Below, one piece after another: positions 7,023-24,922 of a stretch of 64,000 nucleotides of DNA. Origin of the DNA: Blastocatellia bacterium (GTDB taxonomy: Bacteria; Acidobacteriota; Blastocatellia; RBC074); assembly GCA_016789725.1 (NCBI GenBank), contig JAEUQN010000012.1, positions 1,448 through 65,447 of the forward strand, written 5' to 3'. How positions within the stretch are numbered: position 1 is the stretch's first letter; each line of letters opens with the position of its first letter. The notes under the pieces are model-generated. The model did no database searches and was not told the DNA's origin. It was given only the letters and a program-made list of their open reading frames with translations. The position numbers were made by a program, and so were the translations under genes.

Positions 7023-7042
7023 CCTCAGACGTTGTAGTTTTT

Positions 7043-7762
7043 ATGTCGAGCGCAGCTACACATAAACAAATGAACGCGAGCCAACAGAGTGCAGAGAAAG
7101 ATTTAGTCAGCCTGGCAACGCCGGTGCTGGATTTGGTGATGCGGATTCGTGCCGGGCAAATCGTGCCATCGGCTGAAATGCGGCAACTGGTGGATGGTAG
7201 GCTCAAGGATTTAGAAGCTCGTGGCGTGCAATTGGGTTTCAAGGACACGCAACTGCAAAACGTCAAATTTGCGCTCGCCGCGTTTGTGGATGAAACGGTG
7301 ATGGCGGGTGGGTTTGCCGTTCGTAACGAATGGGAACGATACCCCCTTCAGCTTCAGTATTTTCAGGAGCAGTTTGCGGGCGTGAAATTTTTTGATCGCC
7401 TTGATGCCCTGCTTAAAAACGCTGAGTCCGAAGCCGATGTGATTGAAGTCTATTACTTGTGCTTGTTGTTAGGTTTCAAGGGCAAATATCATATCTATCT
7501 GGAAGATCAACTGCCGGGCGTTTTGCAAAATGTCGCCGGGCAATTGCAGCGTGTGGGACGCTTGAAAAATACGATCCTTTCGCCCCATTGGAAATTGAGC
7601 GATCAGCCCGCCCCGCCGCAGGAAACCAAAGTCCCCGAAATGCCCGCGTGGGTAAAGTTGGTGGCGCTTGGCTCCTTGGCACTGGTTGGCTTGAGTTATT
7701 TGCTATTTCAGTTTTTACTTACGAACCAGGCGAACGGAACAAACGAGATACTCTTAAAGTAA
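7043..7762 (+). CDS. tssL: T6SS membrane subunit TssL (DotU family), no OmpA/PG-binding extension
   Basis: KFALAAFVDE, W..YPLQLQYF, AGVKFFDRL, EVYYLCLLLGFKGKY, C-terminal TM helix. Confidence 0.95.
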   Translation: MSSAATHKQMNASQQSAEKDLVSLATPVLDLVMRIRAGQIVPSAEMRQLVDGRLKDLEARGVQLGFKDTQLQNVKFALAAFVDETVMAGGFAVRNEWERYPLQLQYFQEQFAGVKFFDRLDALLKNAESEADVIEVYYLCLLLGFKGKYHIYLEDQLPGVLQNVAGQLQRVGRLKNTILSPHWKLSDQPAPPQETKVPEMPAWVKLVALGSLALVGLSYLLFQFLLTNQANGTNEILLK

Positions 7763-7946
7763 CGAGAAAATCACGATAGCTTGGTGAGATGTGCGTTCCC
7801 CAGTTCGTGAGATTTCATCACCCCCCTCCCCTTTGATTGCCCCAGCATTCGCTGTTAGCGAGTGTGTTGATTTGGATGCAGCGTTTTATCTTGAACTCGC
7901 TGTCTGTGCCTCACCCAGCACGCCCCAAACTGGATAGGAAAGTACG

Positions 7947-10900: not shown

Positions 10901-11321
10901 GAATCAAGCGATCAAGCTGCAACAGGCATTTTTCCCCGGCGGACAACAACCAAAGGTCAACTATTCACTGTCGGTAAAACCACCACCGACCAAGAAAGTC
11001 GAAGTGAAAGCCGACGGCGTCACTGTCACGGCTGACGGCTCGGTTTCCAACGGCAGTTTGTCGTGGCCGCAGACGAGCGGTGAAAATGGCATCAAGGTAA
11101 TGGTGTCGAGCAAAGATGCTGCCGTCGCCGTTGGACAAACTGCGGTGCCGGGAGCGACTGAAGCTGCGAATCATCCCGGTTTGTGGGGCGTGTTTCGGAT
11201 GACAGCGGGGAATAAATATCAATTCACATGGGGCGATGTCAGCGCGACATTGCAACCGCCTGCGAATAATCCATTCGCGCTAAATTTCACCGCGCTGCGT
11301 GCGCCGGATAGTTTTAAGTAG
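7947..11321 (+). CDS. tssM: T6SS membrane subunit TssM (IcmF)
   Basis: Two N-terminal TM helices, LYGLPWYVLAGPPSSGKT (Walker A), LIDTAGRY, RFPVYLVFTHAD..GF.EFF, QVWG, LLRGFYFTS, third TM helix, RYPF, FFNPADG. The C-terminal beta region appears short. Confidence 0.95.
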   Translation: MPALSLKKLIIFCVLITLTGIALLMVLLFSDEIGITQILLIALILLCWPIGFLLNYLLKNRQAKADGVPAEAAPKTSKELTPSRDYEELSRSAEEAAQFLRSSNLGNREVSDALYGLPWYVLAGPPSSGKTSLALSAGLSFNALSSQRRSDQNLVRATRDCEWRVSDNGVLIDTAGRYFTEGPDRDEWLGLIETLKKTRKNRALDGFVLTVNAANVFNAKEAEIEQQAQVLRARIDEVIKSTGVRFPVYLVFTHADAIPGFSEFFAALPPNERAQVWGATIPLEQAQNAHALFDVEFDYLLDSLMKRRLLQLGSATTPAQQYGTFSFPLRFADTRRKLGLFTLALFRPNPFSELPLLRGFYFTSNPQGQDGRINNTGIYSEDLFKQVIFRDKDIAASFQSQKAAPNQLAKVKLAIGTLAAACLLWVGGSVASFFNNYSLLSEAQDHAKRVLDHYEAGRGKDKVETTAVELENLDKLRVTLQKIDDNDRSFFGSLAYRFGLYSGGKVRTRTRQVYFDFVSQRFLNPAITALENDLANVTPAGEGDKLEAMQDDYYYKLQAYLMPEKQDRVDPKFLEEKLSQYWKEKPSDRGRMESLAFYSEQAALSDDDDETVPRPLAKLEAVQSARGKLKSYSPTKRVYNEVMRKINKLGLAVDLAKVLEGQEGTELLEESEPHPVPYAFTKQAYYKHVTGDAMASVKEDLSGKDDWVMGEKSAAQGINVEQLRDRYSTEYAAHWQKFLNGIRVRSFKDKNAAIDALGTLAQENSPLKKVVAYVASETKLSEPPQDGGALAWLKGLLASKAGITDPKVETSFAPLHKFVAGDQPPVSRYLSKLAEVREQLRSAPGTSWDELAKVPNENKAWNKPANEVNDLIKQMDLSPGSKAASEFLARPLANIGAGQKAGEAKNLEEAWRNLVQSARKLESRYPFSNSTTDVQLNEFVQFFNPADGEVSKLVKNFLSDKVEGEPGQLKSKNAAEFSDAAVAYLNQAIKLQQAFFPGGQQPKVNYSLSVKPPPTKKVEVKADGVTVTADGSVSNGSLSWPQTSGENGIKVMVSSKDAAVAVGQTAVPGATEAANHPGLWGVFRMTAGNKYQFTWGDVSATLQPPANNPFALNFTALRAPDSFK

Positions 11322-11325
11322 TGAC

Positions 11326-11383
11326 GTGCAGAGTTCACGCTTCAGCGTGTAGATTCAGGCAGGCTGAAGCGTGAATTCTGAAC
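11326..11383. repeat. REP-like inverted doublet
   Basis: GTGCAGAGTTCACGCTTCAGCGTG and CAGGCTGAAGCGTGAATTCTGAAC are 21/24 reverse complements; internal palindrome CACGCT-TC-AGCGTG. Confidence 0.75.
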
Positions 11384-11465
11384 CCAAATGAAAAATTATT
11401 TTTCACCGATGCCACTTTTGGACAAACAGCAACGCTTTTCCAAGTGAGAGCAAAAAGAGAACGAT

Positions 11466-12290
11466 ATGGCAACTGCAAAAGAACTTTTTCGATCTGGCGA
11501 ACTCGCTGCGGCCATCACGCAGCTCATCAGCGAGGTCAAGGCACGACCGACCGATACCTCCGCCCGCATCTTTCTCTTTGAACTGCTCTGCTTCGCGGGT
11601 GAATTGGATCGTGCCGAGCGGCAATTGGATGTGATTGCGACACAGGGCGCGCAAACCGAACTCGGAGTGCTGGCCTATCGCAATTGCCTCAAAGCCGAAC
11701 GCGAACGTCGCAAGCTCTGGGCTGAAGGTGGCGAGCCGCATTTTATGGCGGACCCGCCCGCGTATGTGGATTTGCATTTGGGTGCCATTCATCAGGCGCG
11801 TGAGGGGAAGTTCGCTGAAGCGCGGGCGCTGTTGGATCAAGCGGAAGAGCAACGCCCCGCGATGCCGGGCAATGCGGATGGCGCGGAATTTTATGACCTG
11901 CGTGATGCCGATGATTTTGTCGCGCCAGTGTTGGAAGTGGCGATCAAAGATCAATACGCGTGGATTCCGTTTGAGCAGGTACGGCGGCTGCAAATTGGCA
12001 AGCCCGAACAGTTGCGCGATTTGCTGTTCACGCCAGTGCGTATCGAATTGGTAGATGGCACGCAAGGTCAGTTCTTTATGCTCGCTTTGTACGCCAGCAC
12101 GTATGAGGCCGCCAATGAGCAGGTCAAGCTGGGACGCGCCACCGAATGGTCGGCCTACAGCGATGATCTTGCAGGTGGCACGGGCGCACGCCTGTGGATG
12201 ATTGGCGACGATGACAAACTAATCTTTGATGTTGAATCAGTCGAGTTGCACGCTGCGGCTGAGAGCGAAGAAAACGAAGTAGCAAACTAA
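11466..12290 (+). CDS. tagJ: T6SS accessory protein TagJ (ImpE/SciE family)
   Basis: VKARPTD..ARIFLFELLCFAGELDRAERQL, DLRDADD..APVLE, YAWIPF, P..LRDLLF, KLGRATEW. Confidence 0.93.
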   Translation: MATAKELFRSGELAAAITQLISEVKARPTDTSARIFLFELLCFAGELDRAERQLDVIATQGAQTELGVLAYRNCLKAERERRKLWAEGGEPHFMADPPAYVDLHLGAIHQAREGKFAEARALLDQAEEQRPAMPGNADGAEFYDLRDADDFVAPVLEVAIKDQYAWIPFEQVRRLQIGKPEQLRDLLFTPVRIELVDGTQGQFFMLALYASTYEAANEQVKLGRATEWSAYSDDLAGGTGARLWMIGDDDKLIFDVESVELHAAAESEENEVAN

Positions 12291-12301
12291 GCGGGGGATT
12301 G

Positions 12302-13465
12302 ATGTCTGACACCACTTCTGTGATTGACCTGGAAGCTTTATTAACGCCGATTGATGGCGATAACCCATCGGGCGATTCGCTGCGCTACGAGGGGACCTAC
12401 GATCAAATTAAGGAAGCGCGCCGCGAGGATGAGGTCCTGGCGCAGGGCGATTGGTCACGCGATTTGAAAGTTGCCGATTGGCCGCTGGTCATCAAGCTGG
12501 CAACCAATGCGCTGACATCGAAAACCAAAGATTTGCAGATTGCTGTCTGGTTAACGGAAGGCATCGTCAAACACGACCGACATGACCGCTGGATTGCCTT
12601 GCGCGATGGCTTGAATTTGTTGCGCGGTTTGCACGAAAACTTTTGGGACACGATTTATCCCGAAATTGATCCTGAGGATGATGATGGCCCGCTGGCCTCT
12701 CGTGCCAATGTGCTGGCCGCATTTGATGCGCGGTTGGCAGGCGTTATCAAAGAGTTGCCACTGACGGCGGGACAGAAATATTCGTTCCTGCAATATCTTG
12801 AATCCAAGCAATTCGATATTCCTGAAAACATCGAAGCTTTGGAGTATGACCAGCAGGAAAAATTCAAGGCGCTCAAGCAGCAGGCCGAGGCGGAGCGGAA
12901 AGTCACCGGCGACGATTGGCGAAAGGCCAAGGCCGCCACGAACCGCGATTTTATCGAAGCGCGCTACGCCCTCATCAATGAATGCTGGGATGCTTTCAAA
13001 TCGCTTGATGCTGAGATGGACGCCAAGTTCGCACGCGAAACGCCGGGCCTGGGCGAATTTAAAAAGTCATTGGATGAAATCCGCACGCTCGTAGATTTAT
13101 TCGTCAAAGAGAAGCAAAAGGCCGAACCACGGGGCGATGAGGCGGGCGGCGATGAAAGCGGTGAGAGTGGCGAAGGCGAATCGTTGACGACCAGTACGGG
13201 CAACAGTGGCGGCGGGTTTGCCGTTTCTCAAGGGGCAATTCGTTCGCGGCAGGAAGCCCTTAATCGGCTTTCGGAAATCGCCAACTTTTTCCGGCAAACT
13301 GAGCCGCACAGCCCTGTTTCGTATGCTGTCGAACGCGCTGTCAAATGGGGCAATATGCCGCTGGAGGCCTGGTTGGCGGATGTGCTGAAAGATGGTACAG
13401 CGCTCGAATCCATGCGCGAAGTTTTAGGGTTCAATACCGGTAACAACAGTAGTGATAGCTATTGA
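12302..13465 (+). CDS. tssA: T6SS TssA (ImpA N-terminal domain, short form)
   Basis: LLTPIDGDNPSGDSLRY...YDQIKEAR, ADW, TKDLQIAVWL, IRSRQEAL..L.EIA.FF..TEPHSPVSY (EPxxP). Confidence 0.94.
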   Translation: MSDTTSVIDLEALLTPIDGDNPSGDSLRYEGTYDQIKEARREDEVLAQGDWSRDLKVADWPLVIKLATNALTSKTKDLQIAVWLTEGIVKHDRHDRWIALRDGLNLLRGLHENFWDTIYPEIDPEDDDGPLASRANVLAAFDARLAGVIKELPLTAGQKYSFLQYLESKQFDIPENIEALEYDQQEKFKALKQQAEAERKVTGDDWRKAKAATNRDFIEARYALINECWDAFKSLDAEMDAKFARETPGLGEFKKSLDEIRTLVDLFVKEKQKAEPRGDEAGGDESGESGEGESLTTSTGNSGGGFAVSQGAIRSRQEALNRLSEIANFFRQTEPHSPVSYAVERAVKWGNMPLEAWLADVLKDGTALESMREVLGFNTGNNSSDSY

Positions 13466-13554
13466 GAAATAGTTTCTAAATCGTCGGTGCGCCTGCGCTT
13501 TTGCAGGCAGCCAAAGCGAGACGCGGACGCACCCATTTTCCTAGGAGAATCGTT

Positions 13555-14067
13555 ATGGCAAAAAGAGAAAGTATCCAACAGAAAATCAGCCGGATTCGCC
13601 CTCCGCGAGTTCACATCAGTTATGAAGTTGAAACGGGCGGCGCAATCGAGATGAAAGAGCTTCCGTTTGTGATCGGTGTGCTGGGCGATTTTTCCGGCAA
13701 ACCGGTTGACCCGCTGCCGCGTGTCCGCGACCGTAAGTTCGTCGAAATTGATCGGGACAATTTTGATGGCGTCCTGGCCGGAATGAAACCGCGCTTGCAA
13801 ATGGGCGTCGAGAACAAACTCAACGACAATGGCGGCAAACTCGCCGTTGAATTGAACTTCCGCAGCATGGAAGATTTCGAGCCAGATCAGGTTGTGCAAC
13901 AAGTTGAACCGTTGCGTCGTTTGGTTGAGGCCCGCCGCAATCTTTCCGATCTGTTAGCCAAAATGGATGGCAACGACAAACTCGGCGAATTGCTGGAAGA
14001 CGTGCTGAACAATGCTGACGCGCAGAAACAGCTTGGCGATGCGTTGGGTGTCAAGAAGGAAGACTAA
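13555..14067 (+). CDS. tssB: T6SS contractile sheath small subunit TssB
   Basis: RIRPPRVHISYEVETGGA..MKELPFVIGVLGDFSG, F.SMEDFEPDQV; AGGAG RBS before ATG 13555. Confidence 0.97.
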   Translation: MAKRESIQQKISRIRPPRVHISYEVETGGAIEMKELPFVIGVLGDFSGKPVDPLPRVRDRKFVEIDRDNFDGVLAGMKPRLQMGVENKLNDNGGKLAVELNFRSMEDFEPDQVVQQVEPLRRLVEARRNLSDLLAKMDGNDKLGELLEDVLNNADAQKQLGDALGVKKED

Positions 14068-14073
14068 CCTGAA

Positions 14074-14108
14074 ACCGTGAACAGTTAACAGGGAATCGTT
14101 AACAGTCA
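14074..14108. repeat. Degenerate heptamer tandem repeat between tssB and tssC
   Basis: ACCGTGA ACAGTTA ACAGGGA ATCGTTA ACAGTCA. Confidence 0.6.
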
Positions 14109-14120
14109 AAAGGAGAATCC

Positions 14121-15602
14121 ATGAGCGAGCAAGTAGAAAGACAAGCCCAAACCGTCACCCAGGAAGCCGAAGGCGATTTGCTTGGACAAATCCTGGACAA
14201 GGGAATGCGGGCCAAAAATGAAACCCAGACCGCACGCGCGAAAGACATCATTGCTGAATTTGTGGGGCAGGTGATGGAAGGCCAAATGGTGATGTCCAAA
14301 GATATGGAAACCACCATCAATGCACGCATCGCGGCGATTGATAAAGTGATTTCTGCGCAACTCAATGAAATCATGCACCACGAAGAATTTCAGAAACTCG
14401 AAGGTTCGTGGCGCGGACTCCATCACCTCGTCTTTGAGAGCGAAACCGGCACCGGACTCAAGATCAAGGTGATGAACGTCAACAAAAAAGAATTACTGAA
14501 AGACCTGGAAAAAGCGCCGGAGTTTGATCAATCCGCGCTCTTCAAGAAAGTGTATGAAGAGGAATTCGGCACCTTCGGCGGCGCGCCGTTTGGGGCCTTG
14601 ATTGGCGATTATGAATTCGGCAACCACCCGCAGGACATGATGTTGCTCGAAAAGATTTCGCAAGTCGCAGCGGCGGCGCACGCGCCCTTTGTCTCGGCGG
14701 CGGGCGCGGGGCTGTTTGGTTGGGACGATTTCGCGCAGCTTTCCGAAGTGCGTGATCTGGCGAAAATCTTCGATCAGGTGGAATACGCGAAATGGCGTTC
14801 ATTCCGCGAATCAGAAGACTCGCGCTATGTGGGTTTGACGTTGCCGCACACGCTGATGCGGTTGCCGTATGGCAGCGCCACGGTTCCCACTGAAAGTTTC
14901 AATTTTGAAGAAGATGTGGACGGCACGGATCACAAGAAATATTTGTGGGGCAATGCGGCGTATTCGTTTGGCACGCGCCTGACCGAAGCGTTTGCGATGT
15001 ACAACTGGTGCGTAGCGATTCGCGGCGTCGAAGGCGGCGGCCTGGTGCAGGGCTTACCGACGCATACCTTTGCCACTGACGAAGGCGAAGTCGCGCTGAA
15101 ATGCCCGACCGAAATCGCCATCACAGATCGGCGTGAAAAAGAATTTTCCGACCTCGGTTTCATTCCGCTCGTGCATTGCAAAGGCACCGATTATGCGGCG
15201 TTCTTCGGCGCACAATCGGCCAACAAAGCGGCAAAATATGATACCGAAGCGGCCAATGCCAACGCGCGGCTTTCGACCCAACTGCAATACATCTTTGCGG
15301 TGTCGCGGTTTGCGCATTATCTGAAATCCATGATGCGCGACAAGATCGGCAGTTTCATGTCGCGCACCGAATGCGAAACCTTCCTGAATCGGTGGATTCG
15401 CAATTACGTCACCGAAGACGACACGGCTTCGCAAGCCACCAAAGCCCAATTCCCCTTGCGGGAAGCGCGCGTAGATGTCGTCGAAGTGCCGGGTAAACCG
15501 GGCGTTTACAAAGCCGTCGCTTTCCTGCGACCGCATTTCCAACTGGACGAATTGTCCGTCTCGTTGCGCCTGGTTGCGGAACTCCCCAAATCTGCCAAGT
15601 AA
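14121..15602 (+). CDS. tssC: T6SS contractile sheath large subunit TssC
   Basis: FQKLEGSWRGL, FKKVYEEEFGTFGGAPFG, AAAAHAPF, YLWGNAA, KCPTEIAITDRREKE, FLRPHFQL. Confidence 0.98.
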   Translation: MSEQVERQAQTVTQEAEGDLLGQILDKGMRAKNETQTARAKDIIAEFVGQVMEGQMVMSKDMETTINARIAAIDKVISAQLNEIMHHEEFQKLEGSWRGLHHLVFESETGTGLKIKVMNVNKKELLKDLEKAPEFDQSALFKKVYEEEFGTFGGAPFGALIGDYEFGNHPQDMMLLEKISQVAAAAHAPFVSAAGAGLFGWDDFAQLSEVRDLAKIFDQVEYAKWRSFRESEDSRYVGLTLPHTLMRLPYGSATVPTESFNFEEDVDGTDHKKYLWGNAAYSFGTRLTEAFAMYNWCVAIRGVEGGGLVQGLPTHTFATDEGEVALKCPTEIAITDRREKEFSDLGFIPLVHCKGTDYAAFFGAQSANKAAKYDTEAANANARLSTQLQYIFAVSRFAHYLKSMMRDKIGSFMSRTECETFLNRWIRNYVTEDDTASQATKAQFPLREARVDVVEVPGKPGVYKAVAFLRPHFQLDELSVSLRLVAELPKSAK

Positions 15603-15777
15603 GCGCCTGGCAGAGAACTTTTATTACTCGCAGTGGGCTTGCGATGATTTCAATTCGCTCACTGAACTTTGGTAGTCGCAAACAGAAAAACGCCGATGTC
15701 ACAGCCAGTGTTGCAAGCTCTACCGTGTCCATCCGCGTTTGTCTGTCGTTCTTAACCTTTGAGGAGGTACTTACATT

Positions 15778-16266
15778 ATGGCAGCAGTTGATTATTTTCT
15801 GAAGATTGAAGGGATCCCCGGCGAAAGTCAGGATCACAAACATAAAGACGAAATCCAGATCGAATCCTGGTCCTGGGGCGAAACCCAAGTGGGCAGTCAT
15901 AGTAGTGGTGGTGGTGGCGGCGCAGGCAAAGTTCAGATGCAGGACTTTCATTTCGTGATGAAAGTGAACAAAGCCAGCCCGAAGCTGTTGCTCGCTTGCG
16001 CCAATGGTGAACATATCAAGAGCGCCTCGTTGGTCTGCCGCAAAGCCGGAAAAGAACAGCAGGAATTTCTGAAATATAAGTTTTCGGACATCCTGATTTC
16101 TTCTTACCAGACCGGTGGATCAGGCGGCAGCGATGTGATTCCGATGGATCAGCTCTCGCTCAACTTCACCAAGATCGAAGTGGAATACTATACCCAGAAA
16201 CCCGATGGCGGCGTCGTGTTGGGGGCGAAGGCCGGATATGATCTGAAGCAGAATAAGGCCGTGTAA
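15778..16266 (+). CDS. hcp: T6SS tube protein Hcp (TssD)
   Basis: FLKIEGIPGESQD..HKDEI.I.SWSWG, ASPKLLLACANGEHI, YDLKQNK; GAGGAGG RBS. Confidence 0.98.
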   Translation: MAAVDYFLKIEGIPGESQDHKHKDEIQIESWSWGETQVGSHSSGGGGGAGKVQMQDFHFVMKVNKASPKLLLACANGEHIKSASLVCRKAGKEQQEFLKYKFSDILISSYQTGGSGGSDVIPMDQLSLNFTKIEVEYYTQKPDGGVVLGAKAGYDLKQNKAV

Positions 16267-16449: not shown

Positions 16450-16938
16450 ATGAGTAGATTCGATAACGAAATTCGCATTACTTCTTCGGTTCTTGATCGG
16501 CTCATTGACTACGAGCCGGAAGTGAAATCCGAAGCGCCTGCTTCGCGGCAAAAGAGCCTGCGCGATTTGAAAGCGGCGGTCAAACGCGATCTGGAATGGT
16601 TGCTCAATTCGCGGCAAGTGGTCGGCGGTGTGCCGGAGGAATTGAAAGAAACCAGTCATTCGCTGGCGGCGTTCGGGTTGCCGGATTTTACTGGTGTGAG
16701 TTTGAAAAATGTCGCCGAGCAAGCCTTTGTGCGCCGTACTATCGAACGCGCCATTAGTTTATTTGAGCCGCGCCTGGAAGACGTCATGGTGATTTTGATT
16801 CCCGGCAATAACGGTGAACAGGTGATGCGCTTTCGCATTGATGCCCGGCTGAAAATTGAACCTGCACCGGAACCCGTGACGTTCGACACGCTCCTGCAAT
16901 TGGACAACGGGCAATATGTGGTGAAAGAACAGCGGTGA
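16450..16938 (+). CDS. tssE: T6SS baseplate subunit TssE (gp25-like)
   Basis: SVLDRLID, VKRDLEWLLNSR, FGLPD, I..FEPRL, FRIDARL. Confidence 0.95.
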   Translation: MSRFDNEIRITSSVLDRLIDYEPEVKSEAPASRQKSLRDLKAAVKRDLEWLLNSRQVVGGVPEELKETSHSLAAFGLPDFTGVSLKNVAEQAFVRRTIERAISLFEPRLEDVMVILIPGNNGEQVMRFRIDARLKIEPAPEPVTFDTLLQLDNGQYVVKEQR

Positions 16939-16974
16939 TGACAACGGTGATGATGACACACCGGAGTTGAAACT

Positions 16975-18558
16975 ATGACTGAGAACAACCCCTACGATCA
17001 GATTCCTTACACCAGTTATCCGTTCGCGCAAACGCATCCGAATCGGTTGGCGACGTTGGCGAGGCTGCACAGCTTGCAGCCCACGCCCATTACGAACTGC
17101 CGTGTCTTGGAGGTTGGTTGCGGCGATGGCGCAAATCTGATTCCGATGGCATTGATGCTGCCGAACAGCCAGTTTGTGGGATTCGACCTGGCCGCAAAAC
17201 CTGTCCAGCAGGGACAACAAATCATCGCTGATCTTGAACTCACAAACATCAAGCTGCTTCAGGCTGACTTGATGGAGTTTGAGGACGAACCCTTCGATTA
17301 CATCATCACGCACGGTTTGTATGCCTGGGTTCCGCAGGTTGTGCAGGAGGGCTTGATGGCCCTGTGCGAACGATTGCTGACGCCGAACGGTGTTGCCTAC
17401 ATTAGCTACAACGCTTATCCCGGCTGCCACCTGCGCGAGATGACGCGTGAGATGATGCTCTTTCATATTCGTGGCAACGACAACCCGCACGACCGCATGA
17501 ATCAAGGCTTGTCGTTGCTGAAATTTATTCTCAGCCAGTATCCATCAGAGTCAAAAGCGCGCGAAGATTTGTATGGAGCTATCGTGTTTGAGCAATTCGA
17601 TACGCTTGCGCGGCATCGGCATCGGGAACAGGTATATCACGACCACTTGGCCGAGTATTATCGGCCTGCCTATTTCTATCAATTTGCCGCACACGCGGCG
17701 CAGCACGGCATGCAATATCTGGCCGAGGCCACTTTCTCCGACATGCAGGATTATCAATTTCCTCCCTCGGTGCGCGAATTACTGGCCCAGTTTGACGATG
17801 AGCATATCGTTCACCGCGAGCAATATCTGGATTTCCTCAAAGGCCGCTCGTTTCGACAGACCTTGTTATGCCGCGATGATCTCAAAGTGCAACGCGCGAT
17901 CAAGGCTGAACAAATCAAGGCGTTTTATTTCTCTTCCGAGATTGAAACGATGTCGGCGCAACCGGATTTGTCGCCTCACGTGGTCGAGGCCTTTGAAGGC
18001 CCCAAAGGCGCACGGTTGCAAATTGATTTCCCCTTAGCCAAAGCAGCGTTGGTGATTTTGAAAGAATCGTGGCCGCGTCAATTCGATTGGGAAGAGTTGC
18101 AATCCGCAGCGGTCGCGCGCGTGATGGAATTTCAGCGCGAATCTGTCACCGCAGACGAACTGCAAGCTTTGACCGAAATCATGTTTGCCGCTTACGGTTC
18201 CGGCGTGATTCATCTGCATTCGCACCGCCCTGAAATGCAACTCCAGGTCACAACGCATCCGGTGGCGAATCGTCTGGCACGTTGGCAGGCGCAACACGGT
18301 GCAGTTGTGACAAATGTGCTGCACGCCAGTGTGATTCTGGAAAATGAATTGAGCCAGCGACTGTTACAATTGATGGATGGCACGCGCGATCACGATGCGT
18401 TGAGAGCCGATTTGACGACAGCGATGGAAACTCGCCTGCCTCTCAAATTGAACGAAGAAACCACGATTGAGGATCGCGCTGCGTTGCAGAAAATGATTAC
18501 CGAAACGCTCGACGCGAACCTGCAAAGCTGTGCCCGGCTGGCCTTGTTGGTCGGATAA
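16975..18558 (+). CDS. Class I SAM-dependent methyltransferase with methyltransferase-regulatory domain (Rickettsia PKMT-like)
   Basis: YDQIPYTSYPFAQTHP, RVLEVGCGDGANLIPMA, FDYIITHGLYAWVP, NGVAYISYNAYPG, HDHLAEYYRPAYFYQF, REQYLDFL.GRSFRQTLLC. Confidence 0.88.
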   Translation: MTENNPYDQIPYTSYPFAQTHPNRLATLARLHSLQPTPITNCRVLEVGCGDGANLIPMALMLPNSQFVGFDLAAKPVQQGQQIIADLELTNIKLLQADLMEFEDEPFDYIITHGLYAWVPQVVQEGLMALCERLLTPNGVAYISYNAYPGCHLREMTREMMLFHIRGNDNPHDRMNQGLSLLKFILSQYPSESKAREDLYGAIVFEQFDTLARHRHREQVYHDHLAEYYRPAYFYQFAAHAAQHGMQYLAEATFSDMQDYQFPPSVRELLAQFDDEHIVHREQYLDFLKGRSFRQTLLCRDDLKVQRAIKAEQIKAFYFSSEIETMSAQPDLSPHVVEAFEGPKGARLQIDFPLAKAALVILKESWPRQFDWEELQSAAVARVMEFQRESVTADELQALTEIMFAAYGSGVIHLHSHRPEMQLQVTTHPVANRLARWQAQHGAVVTNVLHASVILENELSQRLLQLMDGTRDHDALRADLTTAMETRLPLKLNEETTIEDRAALQKMITETLDANLQSCARLALLVG

Positions 18559-18562
18559 AATT

Positions 18563-20419
18563 ATGCGTGACGAATTATTAGGGTATTACGAACGCGAATT
18601 GATTTTCCTGCGACAAATGGGCGCGGAGTTCGCCGAGAAATATCCAAAGATCGCTGGACGATTGTCGCTTGAACCGGACAAATGCGAAGACCCGCACGTG
18701 GAGCGGATGATCGAAGCGTTTGCCTTTTTGACGAGCCGCGTTCATCTGAAGATTGACGACGAGTTTCCTGAAATTACGGAATCGCTGCTGAATGTCCTCT
18801 ATCCGCATTACCTCGCGCCGATTCCTTCGATGTCTATCGCACAATTTGGCCTGGACCCACAGCAAGGAAAGCTGACGACGGGATACCAAATCGAACGGGG
18901 GACGACGCTTTATTCGCGTCCGGTGCAGGGCACGCCGTGTCGCTTTCGGAGCAGTTATCCCGTGACATTGTGGCCGATTGAAGTCGCTTCTGCCGCGCTC
19001 GAATCGCTTGATCCGGTGGGCGCGCGTGGCAAATGGTCAGACGCCGTTGTCCGCATCAATCTGCGCTGTTTGCACAATACCAAACTCAGCGAATTAAAAA
19101 TCAAAACGGGCGAAACAGAAGTCGGTATTGCGTCGTTGCGCTTTTACCTGAACGGCGAACCACAGCTTGTTTATCCGCTCTATGAATTGATCTTTAACGA
19201 ACAGGCGCACATCACGAAAGTCGAATTGCGCGACAGCAAATCCCGCAAGACGATTGAGTTGCCGCCGAGCGTCATTCAACCGGTTGGTTTTGCTGGCGAT
19301 GAAGCTCTGCTTGAATATTCGCCGCGTTCGTTTCAGGGCTATCGGTTGCTGACGGAATACTTCGCCTTTCCTGACAAGTTTTTATTCTTTGATGTGAACG
19401 GATTGGACCAGGCGGCGCGGGCCGGATTTGGGGAGCAAGTTGAAATTTTGCTATACCTGAAAGATGTCACGCCGCCGCGCGCAAAAGTGGATGCAGGCAC
19501 CTTCCAACTCGGCTGCACTCCGATCATCAATCTCTTCAAAAAAGTTGCCGAGCCGATCCAACTCACCCAACAACAGAACGAATACCACGTCATCCCCGAC
19601 ATTCATCGGCAATCTGTGACCGAAATTGCTTCGATTGATGCGGTGACAACGGTTGATCCGTACTTACAGCAATCGCGCGAATTCCAGCCCTTTTATTCGT
19701 ATCGTCACGCGTATGAGCGCGAACAGCAGGGCGCGTTCTGGTATGCGTCGCGGCGACCTTCTCATCGAATGGAAGATGCTGGAACAGAGATTTATTTATC
19801 GCTGGTGGATTTGAATTTCAGCCCAAAAGTGCCTGCTGTCGAAACGATTACCTGCCACGTTACCTGCACCAATCGGGACCTGCCCGCGCGCTTACCGTTT
19901 GGCGGACGCGAAGGTGATTTTGAGGTCGAAAATGCCGGGCCGCTCGCGCGCGTAAAATGTTTGCGCAAACCGACCGAAACGCTGCGGCCACCGATGCGGC
20001 GCGGCGCGCATTGGCGTTTGATTTCGCATCTGTCGCTCAATCATTTGTCCATTGTCGAGGGCCAGCGCGCTGGAGACCCAGAGGCGTTGCGCGAAATCCT
20101 GATGCTCTATGACTTCATGGATTCATCCGCAACGCGCAAACAGATTTTAGGTCTGAGCAAAATCAACAGTCGTCGTGTTGTCCGTCAAACTGGTTCGCGC
20201 ATCGGAACCGGCTTTGTGCGCGGCATCGAAACCACGATGGAATTTGATGAAACGCAATTCGTTGGCAGTGGCGTGTTTTTGTTCGCGTCGGTGCTGGAAC
20301 GATTTTTAGGTTTGTACGCCTCCGTGAACTCATTTACGCAACTGGTCGCCAAAAGCGAACAGCGTGAAGGAATCTTGAAAAAGTGGAAGCCACGAGCGGG
20401 CGAAATGAGCCTCTTGTAA
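18563..20419 (+). CDS. tssF: T6SS baseplate subunit TssF
   Basis: YYERELIFLRQMGAEFAEKYPKIAGRL, DPHVERMIEAFAFL, GYRLLTEYFAFPDKF, CTPIINLF, WRLISHLSLNHL, YASVNSFTQL. Confidence 0.97.
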   Translation: MRDELLGYYERELIFLRQMGAEFAEKYPKIAGRLSLEPDKCEDPHVERMIEAFAFLTSRVHLKIDDEFPEITESLLNVLYPHYLAPIPSMSIAQFGLDPQQGKLTTGYQIERGTTLYSRPVQGTPCRFRSSYPVTLWPIEVASAALESLDPVGARGKWSDAVVRINLRCLHNTKLSELKIKTGETEVGIASLRFYLNGEPQLVYPLYELIFNEQAHITKVELRDSKSRKTIELPPSVIQPVGFAGDEALLEYSPRSFQGYRLLTEYFAFPDKFLFFDVNGLDQAARAGFGEQVEILLYLKDVTPPRAKVDAGTFQLGCTPIINLFKKVAEPIQLTQQQNEYHVIPDIHRQSVTEIASIDAVTTVDPYLQQSREFQPFYSYRHAYEREQQGAFWYASRRPSHRMEDAGTEIYLSLVDLNFSPKVPAVETITCHVTCTNRDLPARLPFGGREGDFEVENAGPLARVKCLRKPTETLRPPMRRGAHWRLISHLSLNHLSIVEGQRAGDPEALREILMLYDFMDSSATRKQILGLSKINSRRVVRQTGSRIGTGFVRGIETTMEFDETQFVGSGVFLFASVLERFLGLYASVNSFTQLVAKSEQREGILKKWKPRAGEMSLL

Positions 20420-20422
20420 ATG

Positions 20423-20580
20423 AAATCAAAAGGCAAAAGGCAAAAAGCAAAAGGTTGGCACTTTATTTTTCTCTTTGTTTTCCTGTGGTAACAACGATGG
20501 CTTTTAGAAATCCTAAAAATTATGGCTTGGGTTCCGAACAGACGTTTGCCCTTTGCCTTTTGCCTGTTGCCTTTTGATTT
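20423..20580. repeat. Heptamer (AGGCAAA)n / (TTTGCCT)n inverted-repeat element between tssF and tssG
   Basis: AAATCAAA AGGCAAA AGGCAAA AAGCAAA AGG (20423-20454) and TTTGCCC TTTGCCT TTTGCCT GTTGCCT TTTGATTT (20545-20580) flank an AT-rich ~90-nt loop. Confidence 0.88.
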
Positions 20581-20590
20581 TCCCAGTTTT

Positions 20591-21625
20591 ATGTCTGAGT
20601 CCACTACAACTCAAAAACCGACTACTCTCGAAGACGTGCTCTTCGCAGAACCCTATCGGTTTGATTTCTTTCAGGCGGTGCGCTTATTGGAGCGCGTGTA
20701 CGCTCTGCGCCGTCCGGTCGGACACGCCGCCGAACCTGCCCGCGAAGCCGTTCGCTTTCGCACGATGACGGGCTTGAATTTCCCGGCGAGTCAAATTTAC
20801 GCTCTGCAACGCGAGAGCGATGACCCCGACCACCCCGCGCCGCCACAGATGACCGTGGCCTTTATGGGGTTGACCGGGCCGTCGGGCGTGATGCCCCATG
20901 CTTACACCGAGTTGTTGATGGAACGGTTGCGCAACAAAGACCGGGCGATGATTGAGTTTTTGGATCAATTCAATCATCGCGTGCTGTCGCTGTTTTTTCG
21001 GGCGTGGGAAAAGTATCGCTTCCCGATTGGGGTCGAACGCGGACTGGATGATCGCTTCACCGAATTCCTCTTTGACATCGTTGGTTTAGGCACACGCGGC
21101 TTGCGCCATCGCTTCAGCTTTGCCGATGAAGGATTATTGAGTTACGGCGGGTTGATTGCGAACCAACCACATTCGGCAAGCGCGATGACAGGCATCCTGA
21201 GCGATTATTTCGGCGTCTCTGCGGAGATCGAACAATTCAAAGGGCAATGGCTCAAACTTGACCCCGAAAGCCTGTCCACGCTTGGTCGTGCGAATCATCA
21301 ATTAGGCGTCAGCACTGTTGCGGGTGCGCGTGTGTGGGATCAGCAATCCAAGTTGCGGGTGCGCTTCGGACCGCTGAGCTTTGACAAATTCACAGCGTTT
21401 CTTCCCAACGGCACAGCTTATAAATCAGCGACCGAACTCACTCAGTTTTTTGCCGGGATGGAATTTGATTTCGACCTCCAGTTGGTGCTGCAAAAAGCTC
21501 AGGTTCCATTCTGCAAATTGTCCACGAAGTCCAAACCGGCGTTAGGTTGGACGACGTGGTTGAAAACGAAACCCTTTCGTCAAGACGACACGCAAGTCGT
21601 TTTGCGCGCTGGTCACTCGGCGTAA
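20591..21625 (+). CDS. tssG: T6SS baseplate subunit TssG
   Basis: PYRFDFFQAVRLLE, FMGLTGPSGVMP..YTE, FLDQFNHR..SLFFRAW.KYR, LGWTTWL. ATG 20591; the upstream extension in the ORF track translates the repeat arm. Confidence 0.96.
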   Translation: MSESTTTQKPTTLEDVLFAEPYRFDFFQAVRLLERVYALRRPVGHAAEPAREAVRFRTMTGLNFPASQIYALQRESDDPDHPAPPQMTVAFMGLTGPSGVMPHAYTELLMERLRNKDRAMIEFLDQFNHRVLSLFFRAWEKYRFPIGVERGLDDRFTEFLFDIVGLGTRGLRHRFSFADEGLLSYGGLIANQPHSASAMTGILSDYFGVSAEIEQFKGQWLKLDPESLSTLGRANHQLGVSTVAGARVWDQQSKLRVRFGPLSFDKFTAFLPNGTAYKSATELTQFFAGMEFDFDLQLVLQKAQVPFCKLSTKSKPALGWTTWLKTKPFRQDDTQVVLRAGHSA

Positions 21626-21704
21626 AGAACCGACATGTTTTGCGAAGCAATGCTCGTTCAAGATGACCAGTGAAAATTCGCAAATTTCAGAGGAGAAAAA
21701 GCGT

Positions 21705-22697
21705 ATGTTCAGAAAAACAACAGCATTCATCATCGCCGCAATTTTATTGGCTGGCATCAGTCTTACCACCAGCGCACAACAAAAGAAACGCATCGCCATT
21801 TTGGATTTTGATTATGCCACCGTGTACAGCGATGTTGGCTACATCTTCGGCTCCAACGTAGACGTGGGCAAAGGCATCGCCGATTTGCTGGTGACCAAAT
21901 TGGTACAGGGCGGGCAATACAGTGTCATCGAACGCAAACAGCTCGACAAAATCATTGCCGAACAAAATCTCGGTGCGAGCGGGCGCGTAGATGAAGCGAC
22001 CGCCGCCCGCATTGGAAAAATCCTTGGCGTAGATGCGTTGATTATGGGCAGCATTCACACGTTTGGCCGCGACGATAAAAATCGTGGTGGTGGCGGCGGT
22101 GTGAACGTTCCTGTTCCCGTCTTTGGTGGTGTTCGGGTTGGTTCCAAAAAAGCCAAGGCCATCGTCGGCATCAACTTTCGCCTGGTAGCGACTGACACTG
22201 CTGAAATCTTTTCTGCCGGAGACGCGCGCGGCGAATCCAAACGCGAAGGCGCAAGCATTCAAGCTTCCGGCGGTGTCAAAGGTGTCTACACTGACGGCGC
22301 ACTCGGTATGAATTCCACCAACTTTGCCGAAACGATCATTGGCGAAGCTGTCTACGATTGCGTCAATAAACTGGCGGCACAGTTGGAAGAGAAGGCCAAC
22401 AATCTGCCTGCTCGCACGGCGGCAGCCGTGAAGACCGAAGGCGTAATTGCCGATGTGGCTGGTTCGACCGTCATCATCAACATTGGTCGCAATGCAGGTT
22501 TGAAGAAAGGCGACCGCCTGGAAGTGAAACGCGTTGCCCGCGAAGTTAAAGACCCGGACACCGGCAAAGTCATTCGCGTGGTGGCGGAGACCATCGGCGA
22601 AGTCGTCTTGACGGACGTGGATGATGCGAGTGCGGAAGGGAAGTTCACCGGGAGTGGTCCCGCGAAGATCAAGGATAAGGTGATGCCAATTCAATAA
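21705..22697 (+). CDS. CsgG/HfaB-family exported protein with FlgT-C-like C-terminal domain
   Basis: Sec signal without lipobox Cys; KKRIAILDF, YSVIERKQLDKIIAEQNL, IGKILGVDALIMGSI, two Gly-rich hairpin-like insertions; C-terminal VIINIGRNAGLKKGDRLEV...VKDPDTGKVI. Confidence 0.82.
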   Translation: MFRKTTAFIIAAILLAGISLTTSAQQKKRIAILDFDYATVYSDVGYIFGSNVDVGKGIADLLVTKLVQGGQYSVIERKQLDKIIAEQNLGASGRVDEATAARIGKILGVDALIMGSIHTFGRDDKNRGGGGGVNVPVPVFGGVRVGSKKAKAIVGINFRLVATDTAEIFSAGDARGESKREGASIQASGGVKGVYTDGALGMNSTNFAETIIGEAVYDCVNKLAAQLEEKANNLPARTAAAVKTEGVIADVAGSTVIINIGRNAGLKKGDRLEVKRVAREVKDPDTGKVIRVVAETIGEVVLTDVDDASAEGKFTGSGPAKIKDKVMPIQ

Positions 22698-22805
22698 AAT
22701 ATCGTCTGTAACACTTTTCGCCAGGAAATATCGCTTTTGAGATTAGATGCCAAATCGTATTTGGTAAGTTCGGCAACTTAACTCATTCTGGAAAGGAATT
22801 ACTCT

Positions 22806-23588
22806 ATGGCGACATTAATCCTCGCGGGTTCCGTCGGCACGGGCGGGCCGCAAAATGGAAAACCACATAACGATCCGGCAGATGTGGCAAAGGTGCGAGC
22901 ACGTCTCACCGAACTTGGCTTTCAATGGGTGAGCGGAATTACGACGGGAACCGATAAAGAATTCATTCGCACCATTAAATTGTTTCAGTCCATTTACAAA
23001 GGGAAAGGGCAGGCGGACGAAGGCGACGGACGCATTGACCTTCACGGTACAACACATCGTTGGTTGGCAGCGCAAAACGCTCCCGGCTGGGTAAAGGTGG
23101 GCAGTGAAGGGTATGGCTGGAAATTTACGACCCCCTTAGCCCACGGCGATGACAATGGCGGATACACCACGACGTGGATGGCCGACCGCATTCGCTGGGC
23201 CGCCTTTGAATACGCAACGACGGCATTCTTTTCAGTCGAAAATGCTCCGCCGCTCTGGATTCGGGATTGTTCACCCGATAAGGGCGGCAATGCCATCGGC
23301 CACAAAAGCCACGAAACGGGTTTGGACGTAGATATGCGATTGCCATTGCTGCCGCCGTATACCGACAAATGGGATCGGTTAGAAGGGAAAGAGTACAGCG
23401 TGAAATTCCATTACGATGCGGCGCTCGCACAACTCAAAGCGATTCGCTCGATGATGGAACCGAAACTGGTTCTCTTCAATGATCCCCGGTGCATCAAACA
23501 GGGATTATGTACGCACGAAGCCAACCACGGCAATCACTATCACATTCGCATCAAACCGCCGACCCGCGTGGAAGGAATTTATAAGTGA
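22806..23588 (+). CDS. MepA-like (LAS) murein endopeptidase with N-terminal PG-binding-like domain
   Basis: GHKSHETGLDVD (E. coli MepA has GHASHQTGLDVD) and HGNHYHIR; N-terminal SVG...NDPADVAKVRARL...IKLFQ...DGRID. No signal peptide. Confidence 0.8.
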   Translation: MATLILAGSVGTGGPQNGKPHNDPADVAKVRARLTELGFQWVSGITTGTDKEFIRTIKLFQSIYKGKGQADEGDGRIDLHGTTHRWLAAQNAPGWVKVGSEGYGWKFTTPLAHGDDNGGYTTTWMADRIRWAAFEYATTAFFSVENAPPLWIRDCSPDKGGNAIGHKSHETGLDVDMRLPLLPPYTDKWDRLEGKEYSVKFHYDAALAQLKAIRSMMEPKLVLFNDPRCIKQGLCTHEANHGNHYHIRIKPPTRVEGIYK

Positions 23589-23608
23589 CTCCCTTGATGG
23601 AGGTCGTT

Positions 23609-24922
23609 ATGAGCGCACTAAAGGGACAGAAATATATGCGACAAAAAAATCGCTTTACGGGGCTTTTCTTTCAGGTGTTGGTGGTCGTTGCGGTGATTGG
23701 TGGCAGTGTCAAGGCGCAACCAAGTAGCCGTGACAACCCGCTTCCGCTCCTGCAAAACGAATTGAAAGGCAATATCGCACCGAACGTGCCGATCAATCGC
23801 TTCTATGCGTTTGAAGCGGGGCCGGGCGATGTGTCATTTTCGCTCGAAGTCAAAACCAATGAGCAATGGGCCAACATCGGTGTTGAGATGTTGGATAGGG
23901 ATGGACAAGCTCTCATCAAATTTGATGCGTCATCGAGCGGTGACAAGAAAGACGCCAAGCTGCGATTGGAACAACGACAAGTCGTGACGATGCGTGTTTT
24001 TGGCCCGCGCAATAATCAAAGCGGTTTCTTCACCCTCAAGCTCAAAGGGCCAGTGTTTTTCAATAAAACGCTGGCCTCAAATACCACTCCACCAAAACTT
24101 AACGAACCGGCTCTCCCCAGCAACAATGCACTGCCGGTCGAAAAGAAACCAGACGCGACAACCCCGACAACCGCGCGCAGCGATGGCAACGCCACTGTCA
24201 CAACGAATCCAAATGTCACCTCAAGCGGAGTCAACGAAATCAGTACGAATGAGCGCGTAGCCTTAGTCATCGGCAATAGCAATTATCAGGTTGGTCCGCT
24301 GGCAAATCCGGCGAACGATGCCAAGGCGATGGCGCAATCGTTGCGCGATTCAGGCTTTGACGTGATGCAGTATACGAATCTGAACAAACGCGATTTTGAA
24401 GAAAGTCTGCGCGCGTTCGGCAGCAAGGTTCCGCGCGGCGGCGTGGCGTTGTTTTACTTTGCTGGTCATGGCGTTCAGGTCAAAGGCGTGAATTTTCTGT
24501 TGCCGGTTGGCGCGCGCATTGAAAAGGAAGGCGACATCGAATTTGAAGCTGTAGACGCCGGGCGGATTATGAACGAACTGGAGTCAGCCGGATCGCGCCT
24601 GAACATCGTGATTCTGGATGCCTGTCGCAATAATCCGTTTGCTCAACGCGTGCGTTCATTGCAACGCGGACTGGCGGTCATCAGTGCGCCGAGCGGAACG
24701 GTCGTGGCCTATGCGACCGGCCCCGGCGAAGTGGCGAGCGATGGCGATGGCAACAATGGTTTGTATACGCAGGAATTGCTGCGAAATATGCGCGAACCAA
24801 ATTTGAGAATTGAAGATGTGCTCAAACGCACGCGCATTTCGGTCAAGGAAAAAACCAACGGCCAACAAGTGCCGTGGGAAAACACATCGCTGGATGGCGA
24901 TTTTTATTTTCGGAAACAGTAA
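23609..24922 (+). CDS. Exported caspase-family (peptidase C14) protein
   Basis: Signal peptide, beta-sandwich-like N-domain, Pro/Thr linker, RVALVIGNSNY...LANPANDA, FYFAGHG, VILDACR, NGLYTQELL, QQVPW; GGAGG RBS before ATG 23609. Confidence 0.9.
   Translation: MSALKGQKYMRQKNRFTGLFFQVLVVVAVIGGSVKAQPSSRDNPLPLLQNELKGNIAPNVPINRFYAFEAGPGDVSFSLEVKTNEQWANIGVEMLDRDGQALIKFDASSSGDKKDAKLRLEQRQVVTMRVFGPRNNQSGFFTLKLKGPVFFNKTLASNTTPPKLNEPALPSNNALPVEKKPDATTPTTARSDGNATVTTNPNVTSSGVNEISTNERVALVIGNSNYQVGPLANPANDAKAMAQSLRDSGFDVMQYTNLNKRDFEESLRAFGSKVPRGGVALFYFAGHGVQVKGVNFLLPVGARIEKEGDIEFEAVDAGRIMNELESAGSRLNIVILDACRNNPFAQRVRSLQRGLAVISAPSGTVVAYATGPGEVASDGDGNNGLYTQELLRNMREPNLRIEDVLKRTRISVKEKTNGQQVPWENTSLDGDFYFRKQ

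Follow-up and report, generated by a model that had tools for sequence, protein, structure and literature searches.

A PKMT-type methyltransferase gene inside a type VI secretion cluster of a Blastocatellia bacterium and the recurrent linkage of its relatives to contractile-injection loci

Introduction

Characterized protein-lysine methyltransferases (PKMTs) of bacteria are described as cytoplasmic enzymes that methylate many lysines of abundant proteins bound for export (PMC8232902, PMC11784438). One of them, KmtA of Acinetobacter sp. Tol 5, multiply methylates the abundant exported fiber protein AtaA, and the authors of that study regarded the family as widespread and reasoned that the enzyme must act on something else in carriers that lack adhesins of this type (PMC11784438). 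Here we describe a gene of this family (16975..18558, + strand) in a stretch of 64,000 nucleotides (nt) from a Blastocatellia bacterium (contig JAEUQN010000012.1, positions 1,448 to 65,447), referred to below as the window. The gene lies inside a complete type VI secretion system (T6SS) cluster on the + strand of the window, between the baseplate genes tssE and tssF. The genome containing the window is a metagenome-assembled genome (MAG) that comprises 636 contigs with a total length of 7.77 Mb and is 88.6% complete, and near-identical DNA was present in metagenome runs from wetland, bioreactor, biofilm and sludge.

To our knowledge, threonine phosphorylation is the only post-translational modification that has been routinely tied to the T6SS machine during the fifteen years in which its accessory genes have been catalogued. 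No description of a link between T6SSs or contractile injection and lysine methylation or PKMTs was found in the full-text literature searched, a body of text from which subscription journals were mostly absent. Methyltransferases, methylation and PKMTs go unmentioned in the searched passages of a 2026 review of T6SS accessory factors (PMC13584744), as do T6SSs and Hcp in the main text of the KmtA paper that surveys the distribution of the family (PMC11784438). The presence of PKMT genes in T6SS loci and in loci resembling extracellular contractile injection systems (eCISs) raises the possibility that the machine or its cargo is chemically modified in a way not yet described. The interpretation that we favor, with slightly better than even confidence, is that the window protein is a putative cytoplasmic accessory enzyme by which T6SS tail components or cargo would be methylated on lysines prior to export. 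Methylation of this kind had been suggested in an earlier note made from the DNA of the window, and the comparative genomics presented here makes it more likely.

Results

The product of the gene, a protein of 527 amino acids (aa; P0001), was compared with known proteins by profile, sequence and structure searches. Pfam profiles detected a class I (Rossmann) methyltransferase core at residues 41 to 147 (17095..17415, +; PF13847/PF13649), the "methyltransferase regulatory" domain, which is the dimerization domain of PKMT1, at residues 219 to 300 (17629..17874, +; PF10119, E value of 1.7e-20) and the PKMT C-terminal winged-helix domain at residues 429 to 524 (18259..18546, +; PF21782, E value of 4.9e-17). 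The scores of the last two were above the cutoffs (74 bits against 25.5 and 62.6 bits against 27.8, respectively), and with a middle domain the protein had the four-domain architecture of PKMTs. A phmmer search of all PDB sequences returned Rickettsia prowazekii PKMT1 as the best match (E value of 3.8e-77; query residues 2 to 517 against chain residues 34 to 545) and R. typhi PKMT2 as the second (9.3e-68), while the third match reached only 1e-7 and covered the core alone. An AlphaFold2 model based on 27 homologues had a mean predicted local distance difference test (pLDDT) value of 91 and a predicted template modeling (pTM) score of 0.89. In the structural comparison that the earlier note had proposed, performed with Foldseek, the top PDB matches of this model were again PKMT1 and PKMT2, with template modeling (TM) scores of 0.83 to 0.88 over 525 to 535 columns (5dnk/5dpl).

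Residues of known importance were also retained. D71 and H113, located in or next to the methyltransferase core, aligned with the S-adenosylmethionine (AdoMet)-binding residues D102 and H146 of R. prowazekii PKMT1 (RpPKMT1) and were invariant in the alignment of 27 homologues, and L72 and L99 occupied the places of L103 and I130 of RpPKMT1. Asp102 and His146 are given as critical AdoMet contacts of RpPKMT1 in PMC11784438. The earlier note had likened the protein to Rickettsia PKMT1/PKMT2 from its overall architecture and an N-terminal YDxxPYxSYP motif, a likeness borne out by the alignment, the Pfam domains and the full-length PDB match. This motif was present as PYDQIPYTSYPF in the window protein and as PYDEVPYESYPY at the aligned place in PKMT1; across the 27 homologues, Y7 and Y12 were invariant and Y15 nearly so. 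As all of the testable features were present (full-length homology, the AdoMet-binding Asp and His, the four domains and the motif), these results indicated that the window protein is, by sequence, domains, residues and predicted fold, a member of the Rickettsia PKMT1/2-type protein-lysine methyltransferase family with putative catalytic activity. Its match to the C-terminal domain model PF21782 places it probably in "cluster R" of PMC11784438; the C-terminal half of KmtA is only 16% identical to PKMT1 according to that paper. The family is large, with 3741 representatives of 50% clusters at an E value of ≤1e-30, and the source names of close homologues were those of Acidobacteriota (Blastocatellia, Pyrinomonadaceae). 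A PADLOC search produced only a generic match to the methyltransferase core (mad2).

The ORF listing and translation indicated a single open frame with an ATG start, 527 codons and no internal stop. The upstream tssE gene (16450..16938, +), encoding a gp25-like baseplate wedge protein (PF04965), starts with an ATG at 16450 and ends with a TGA at 16936-16938, leaving 36 nt before the ATG of the methyltransferase gene at 16975. Downstream, a gap of only 4 nt separates the TAA at 18556-18558 from the ATG at 18563 of tssF (18563..20419, +; PF05947, E value of 1.2e-231), a start that was backed by the TssF Pfam match, in which residue 1 corresponded to profile position 1. The intact gene and both spacings that the earlier note had reported were thus confirmed. 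A consensus scan detected no promoter-like or terminator-like sites in either gap, and the PKMT gene is therefore likely, from its position, to be cotranscribed with tssE and tssF. It is present as a single copy in the window's genome. A comparison with the closest genomic relative (locus L005, 62% identity) gave a ratio of nonsynonymous to synonymous substitution rates (dN/dS) of ∼0.16 for the PKMT gene, compared with 0.13 for hcp and 0.04 to 0.07 for tssE, tssF and tssC; all of these values are rough, as dS was near saturation. The PKMT gene is under purifying selection with its catalytic residues intact.

The direct repeat noticed earlier at the tssE junction was present, as CGGTGATGA occurred twice at the tssE stop codon (16933-16941 and 16945-16953, +), and proved to be without significance. 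Two further chance repeats of 9 to 10 nt occurred in the same 500 nt, and the intergenic sequence between tssE and the PKMT gene was not conserved across the related loci L004, L005 and L014. As it was unconserved and equalled by chance repeats nearby, the repeat carries no information and was rejected as an insertion scar.

The distribution of the gene was examined in a genomic survey comprising one genome per prokaryote species, in which at least 599 loci encoded a relative. The 80 loci most like the query were annotated with tblastn and with hidden Markov models (HMMs) iterated from the window T6SS proteins, using flanks of ∼10 kb. T6SS-type genes were present in the fetched flanks of 43 of these 80 best loci, in several phyla and in differing gene orders, with similar proportions among loci having ≥9 kb of flank in each direction (18 of 33) and those with shorter flanks (25 of 47). 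For scale, a T6SS cluster together with 10 kb per side is estimated to occupy ∼0.6% of the 7.8-Mb genome containing the window. Thirty-nine of the linked loci were T6SSs and four, all from Chloroflexota, were eCIS-like, so that the gene was recurrent within T6SS clusters of more than one lineage, as is expected for a T6SS accessory gene. An independent metagenome scan detected T6SS genes beside the PKMT gene in 24 of 26 loci, all 26 being mutually related.

The arrangements of the linked loci were diverse. A tssE-PKMT-tssF order was shared by the window, L005, L014 and G050/L084; in L004 and L015, which were cut by contig ends, tssE was seen upstream of the PKMT gene, and the order in L006 was hcp-PKMT-tssE-tssF. 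In Verrucomicrobiota and Solibacteraceae the gene was divergent from tssB or tssA (L013, L016, L022, L027, L030, L038, L044, L063, L074, L077 and L079). Elsewhere it was the first gene ahead of tssB (L020) or tssK (L021 and L046), or was convergent with tssE (Thermomonas, L050) or vgrG (Methylomirabilota, L054), and in four Bosea genomes it adjoined caspase-like genes and a block of kinase, PP2C, tssM and tssL genes. The four eCIS-like loci (L048, L057, L062 and L066) encoded eCIS_core, a contractile injection system (CIS) tube, a VgrG-like spike, PAAR, gp25, baseplate J and Tail_P2_I, followed by DUF4159 and then PKMT. Downstream of PKMT, these loci encoded FHA-like and VWA/Big_7 proteins (L057, L062 and L066) or a kinase-FHA protein (L048), and no TssC was found in G304, the genome that holds L062 and the only one of the four that was searched. 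In an Anaeromyxobacteraceae MAG (L018:1606-3711, -), an ORF with a T4 gp19-like tail-tube domain adjoined the PKMT gene where the contig ends; the sequence there is high in GC content, and the ORF is an uncertain prediction. A quickly built maximum-likelihood tree of 96 PKMTs required 17 changes of the linked state, at least 8 of which were forced by well-supported branches. The window fell in a well-supported clade of eight rows, of which seven were linked and the eighth was the cut locus L015.

Minimal modules were also detected. Hcp was encoded by the sole T6SS-type gene found in L024, L071 and L080, where hcp directly preceded the PKMT gene, and in L012 and L053. In L012 the PKMT gene was preceded by two copies of hcp and by a Kelch gene, and in L053 (6647-9967, +), from a Planctomycetia MAG, one frame of 1107 aa contained six tandem Hcp domains (PF05638, six stretches, E value of 2.1e-189), with the PKMT gene 19 nt downstream. 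The six-domain protein amounts to an Hcp ring with covalently joined subunits; L067 (Lacipirellulaceae) had five separate tandem hcp-like ORFs rather than a fused frame. In another module, the gene adjoining PKMT encoded a fused VipA-VipB (TssB-TssC) protein of ∼520 to 545 aa, as detected by Pfam in L031, L011, L035, L070 and L131/L136 and by HMM and tblastn in L037. These fused proteins were without the C-terminal VipB_2 domain. The module (L031:8422-13067, L131:4326-9753 and most of L127-L152) consisted of the fused VipA-VipB gene, the PKMT gene and then usually a gene for an MTS-type methyltransferase of ∼500 aa (PF05175; with DUF7059 in L131), and often immediately preceded a canonical tssB-tssC-hcp operon. 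By tblastn, this second methyltransferase was detected beside PKMT in 32 loci across phyla, including Verrucomicrobiota and Methylomirabilota, and a search of the window's genome did not detect it. Hcp and TssBC were ranked first as candidate substrates because the minimal modules share these polymer-forming tube and sheath proteins, an argument of guilt by association.

In L131 (1266-4141, -) and the identical L132, ubiquitin-like conjugation genes (Prok-E2_C plus ThiF, Metal_CEHH and DUF2604) were located upstream of the module of fused sheath and PKMT genes, in divergent orientation. As they were seen only there, they were treated as a coincidence.

Genes directly downstream of an orphan hcp often encode effectors, eCIS payloads are often encoded after baseplate genes, and cargo thought to fit the Hcp lumen is far smaller than 527 aa. 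The first two of these patterns are matched by the hcp-PKMT pairs and by the place of PKMT after the baseplate genes of eCIS-like loci, and raise the explanation that the methyltransferase is itself a T6SS cargo or effector that methylates target-cell proteins after delivery. A model for such an effector exists in Rv2067c of Mycobacterium tuberculosis (PDB 8hkr), a protein-lysine methyltransferase that was the next structural match after PKMT1/2 (TM score of 0.53 by query length and 0.69 by target length) and is, according to PMC10739865, secreted and active on host histone H3K79. Rv2067c is a shorter protein with 13% identity to the window protein and is not a model for its family membership. 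The features of the window protein itself pointed away from delivery: it aligned with PKMT1 over residues 2 to 517, Pfam detected no domain beyond those of PKMTs and no PAAR, MIX, FIX or Rhs delivery marker, and at 527 aa with a PKMT1 dimerization domain it far exceeds the size of Hcp-lumen cargo. Its neighbors are tssE and tssF, and positions between these genes, or divergent from tssB/tssA, are atypical of effectors. Relatives also occurred in genomes without a TssC match, and the known members act cell-intrinsically in the cytoplasm of the producer, as described in PMC8232902. Overall, we consider an effector function to be distinctly improbable, and methylation of T6SS proteins within the producing cell remains the favored interpretation.

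The lysine content of possible substrates in the window was then compared. VgrG, which the earlier note had called visibly lysine rich, contained 7.0% lysine, compared with 5.5% for the 27 proteins of the window that were counted, and did not deserve that description; it was instead Hcp that was lysine rich and arginine poor (17 lysines and 1 arginine), and several of its lysines were kept in most of 20 aligned homologues. A 610-aa protein of no family encoded downstream of vgrG (32383-34215) contained 9.2% lysine and 3.4% arginine, and a DUF3108-like protein (36486-37301) had a strong bias for lysine over arginine (10.0% and 0.4%). The bias of Hcp makes it a plausible substrate and is no evidence that it is one. 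Lysine content was rejected as a pointer to the substrate, as it does not discriminate, the Hcp proteins of PKMT-negative genomes being almost as biased. Known substrates of PKMTs were also sought. No PF03797 autotransporter or PF03895 YadA anchor was detected in the window's genome, which is incomplete, while control genomes were matched. The classes to which OmpB and AtaA belong are a property of the known substrates and not of the fold family, and that neither was found in this incomplete genome counts in favor of another substrate.

In order to examine co-occurrence outside the best-matching loci, an even sample of 300 Acidobacteriota genomes was searched; the genomes are related and not independent, so no P values are given. 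Thirteen genomes were PKMT positive and 30 were TssC positive, with TssC present in all 13 PKMT-positive genomes but in only 17 of the other 287. Within the set of 80 loci, TssC was encoded elsewhere in 10 of the 14 genomes whose PKMT gene had full flanks without T6SS genes. The signal was weaker among 200 Verrucomicrobiota genomes, of which 8 had PKMT, 11 had TssC and 3 had both; TssC was present in 8 of the 192 genomes without PKMT.

A number of observations weigh against a dedicated T6SS function. Only three of the eight PKMT-positive Verrucomicrobiota genomes had TssC, and none of the eight PKMT copies shared a contig with TssC in this 200-genome sample. Of the 14 PKMT copies detected among the 300 Acidobacteriota genomes, just 1 lay in a T6SS locus, and 17 of the 30 T6SS-positive genomes in this sample had no PKMT. 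In seven of eight related Acidobacteriota T6SS stretches, tssE was followed directly by tssF, and tssG by clpV, with no PKMT gene between, as the earlier note had anticipated in calling tssE and tssF normally contiguous; only tssC and hcp were seen in the eighth. No T6SS gene was detected at 37 of the 80 loci, including 15 with full flanks, and the neighbors of the unlinked genes were miscellaneous, with no common theme. The T6SS gene nearest to PKMT varied (TssB in 11 cases, TssA in 7, Hcp in 6, TssE in 5, TssM and VgrG in 4 each and TssK in 2), and no single partner stood out. The mean lysine fraction, K/(K+R), of Hcp was 0.89 in 11 sequences from PKMT-positive genomes and 0.84 in 9 sequences from PKMT-negative T6SS genomes (Mann-Whitney P value of 0.03, for sequences that are related and not independent). 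The 80 loci are themselves a biased sample, being ranked by likeness to the query, and the genomes are related. Several MAG labels are also doubtful. Three MAGs with Gram-positive labels, L071 (Thermoleophilaceae), L080 (Solirubrobacterales) and L007 (Heliobacteriaceae), had an Acidobacteriota-like hcp beside PKMT, with 65%, 34% and 55% identity, respectively, to Acidobacteriota hcp, and the tssC of L007 was 91% identical. These contigs may be misbinned, and phylum counts derived from record titles consequently need care.

These results indicated that the T6SS/CIS link applies to only part of the family, chiefly those proteins closest to the query, and that PKMT is an optional accessory that is dispensable for T6SSs in general and not a core part. 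Overall, 43 of the 80 best loci were linked, and most PKMT copies in the random phylum samples were unlinked.

The absence of the gene from seven of eight related loci bears on the possibility that it is a sporadic insertion without a T6SS role, or an enzyme acting on a nonprotein substrate, and that the association reflects the sampling of close relatives. The choice of the 80 loci most like the query would be in keeping with this explanation, as would the many kinds of substrate on which class I methyltransferases act. Such an origin leaves several observations unaccounted for, however: the purifying selection and retained catalytic residues described above, the retention of all four PKMT domains, those at the C terminus among them, and the recurrence of linkage in unrelated arrangements. 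The place beside tssE was kept in a clade of at least six further loci while their PKMTs diverged to 47% to 62% identity. Either form of this explanation is very improbable in our judgment. The test of sporadic insertion set out in the earlier note went both ways, in that the gene was absent from most related loci but was kept beside tssE in diverged ones and recurred at other positions in other phyla; its presence in the window is not a one-off event, nor is it universal.

The unlinked copies suggest another explanation, in which PKMT methylates envelope or surface proteins unrelated to the T6SS and shares the locus through coregulation or joint horizontal transfer. All characterized relatives act on outer-membrane proteins, as reported in PMC8232902 and PMC11784438. 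Many members of the family reside outside T6SS loci, comprising those at 37 of the 80 loci, 13 of 14 Acidobacteriota copies and the one full-length match among four records in a plasmid collection (a Methylococcus plasmid), which had no T6SS genes nearby. Large surface-protein genes (DUF11/FG-GAP and Big_1) are present downstream in the window, and two relatives from the window's own family (G016 and G251) had neither PKMT nor TssC, so that the whole cluster may have arrived as one block. Set against this are the lack of any autotransporter or YadA-anchor gene among those found in the window's genome and the 36-nt and 4-nt gaps, which place the gene inside a core structural operon. Hitchhiking also leaves unexplained the differing gene orders across phyla, the orphan hcp-PKMT and fused-sheath-PKMT modules and the eCIS-like loci of Chloroflexota. 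We regard this explanation as unlikely, and methylation of T6SS proteins as the better account of the linked genes.

The remainder of the cluster in the window was annotated with Pfam, all genes being on the + strand. Ahead of tssE are tssK (starting at 5640), tssL, tssM, tagJ (ImpE) and tssA (5640..13465), the sheath genes tssB and tssC (13501..15602) and hcp, encoding the tube protein (15778..16266), the last three encoding candidate substrates. After tssF and tssG (20522..21625; PF06996), genes for a CsgG-like lipoprotein with a FlgT_C domain, an M74-like peptidase and a caspase-like protein (Peptidase_C14) are inserted before clpV (21663..24922). These are followed by clpV itself (25118..27787), a GH19-like gene, a vgrG gene whose product has a C-terminal extension (29272..31602), and several genes without a known family. 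Parts of the insert between tssG and clpV were common to L005, L014 and L084, and seven other related loci run from tssG directly into clpV. Caspase-like genes adjoined PKMT in the four Bosea loci and were near it in L010, L011 and L035. No TssJ-like lipoprotein was detected among cluster ORFs of at least 150 aa (5640-31602), a size range above that expected for TssJ; the CsgG-like lipoprotein was the sole candidate outer-membrane part seen in the cluster. Exact metatranscriptome contigs covered only hcp (15700-16211; four runs/libraries from three studies), and the lack of coverage of tssE, PKMT and tssF is no evidence either way. The hcp-only contigs are compatible with hcp transcripts outnumbering those of the other cluster genes, though contigs cannot rank expression.

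Discussion

The recurrent linkage, the minimal modules, the co-occurrence with TssC, the family membership of the protein and the export-bound nature of known PKMT substrates led us to propose that T6SS proteins are methylated. PKMT would have been recruited as a T6SS accessory gene and would be made together with the baseplate proteins. As the tail parts and cargo of a T6SS undergo assembly in the cytoplasm before they are expelled, a cytoplasmic PKMT would have direct access to them, and could use AdoMet to methylate the epsilon-amino groups of several lysines in at least one T6SS protein before assembly or firing. The leading candidates would be the high-copy tail polymers, namely, the Hcp tube and the TssBC sheath, followed by VgrG and cargo. 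By analogy with OmpB, a possible consequence is that lysines are shielded from modification or lysine-directed cleavage in the target cell; analogy with flagellin or AtaA would suggest altered surface charge and hydrophobicity or altered abundance, respectively.

A broader proposal, which we put forward tentatively and think more apt to be wrong than right, is that multisite lysine methylation of contractile-tail polymers (the Hcp tube and/or TssBC sheath and the eCIS-like tube/sheath) by a dedicated PKMT is a widespread but overlooked step in the maturation of contractile injection systems among environmental bacteria, accompanied in some lineages by the MTS-type methyltransferase and a fused TssB-TssC paralogue. 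It might protect injected lysine-rich, arginine-poor tube or cargo proteins from ubiquitin-type tagging or from Lys/Arg-specific proteases, as with OmpB in Rickettsia. If T6SS proteins are methylated, covalent modification of machine or cargo would add a new layer to the T6SS, and OmpB and AtaA would be joined by a third kind of substrate of the large PKMT family. Were the modification to shield injected proteins, the "lysine camouflage" of Rickettsia would extend from the bacterial surface to injected weapons.

Among known modification systems encoded in T6SS clusters, threonine phosphorylation by PpkA/PppA/Fha is well known. This is a reversible regulatory switch on an accessory protein, unlike the lysine methylation proposed here; a kinase and PP2C pair adjoined PKMT in one Bosea locus (L064). 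KmtA of Acinetobacter sp. Tol 5, of the "OM PKMT A" subfamily, belongs to the same superfamily as the window protein. The closest described systems are PKMT1 and PKMT2 of Rickettsia (PDB 5dnk, 5do0, 5doo and 5dpl), a genus in which we know of no T6SS genes, no search having been made. These enzymes share with the window protein the family, the four-domain fold, the AdoMet-binding Asp and His and the YDxxPYxSYP motif, at only 26% to 30% identity. They differ in setting, as the targets of the Rickettsia enzymes are outer-membrane proteins, among them the autotransporter OmpB, whereas the window gene lies inside the T6SS operon of a free-living Acidobacteriota MAG.

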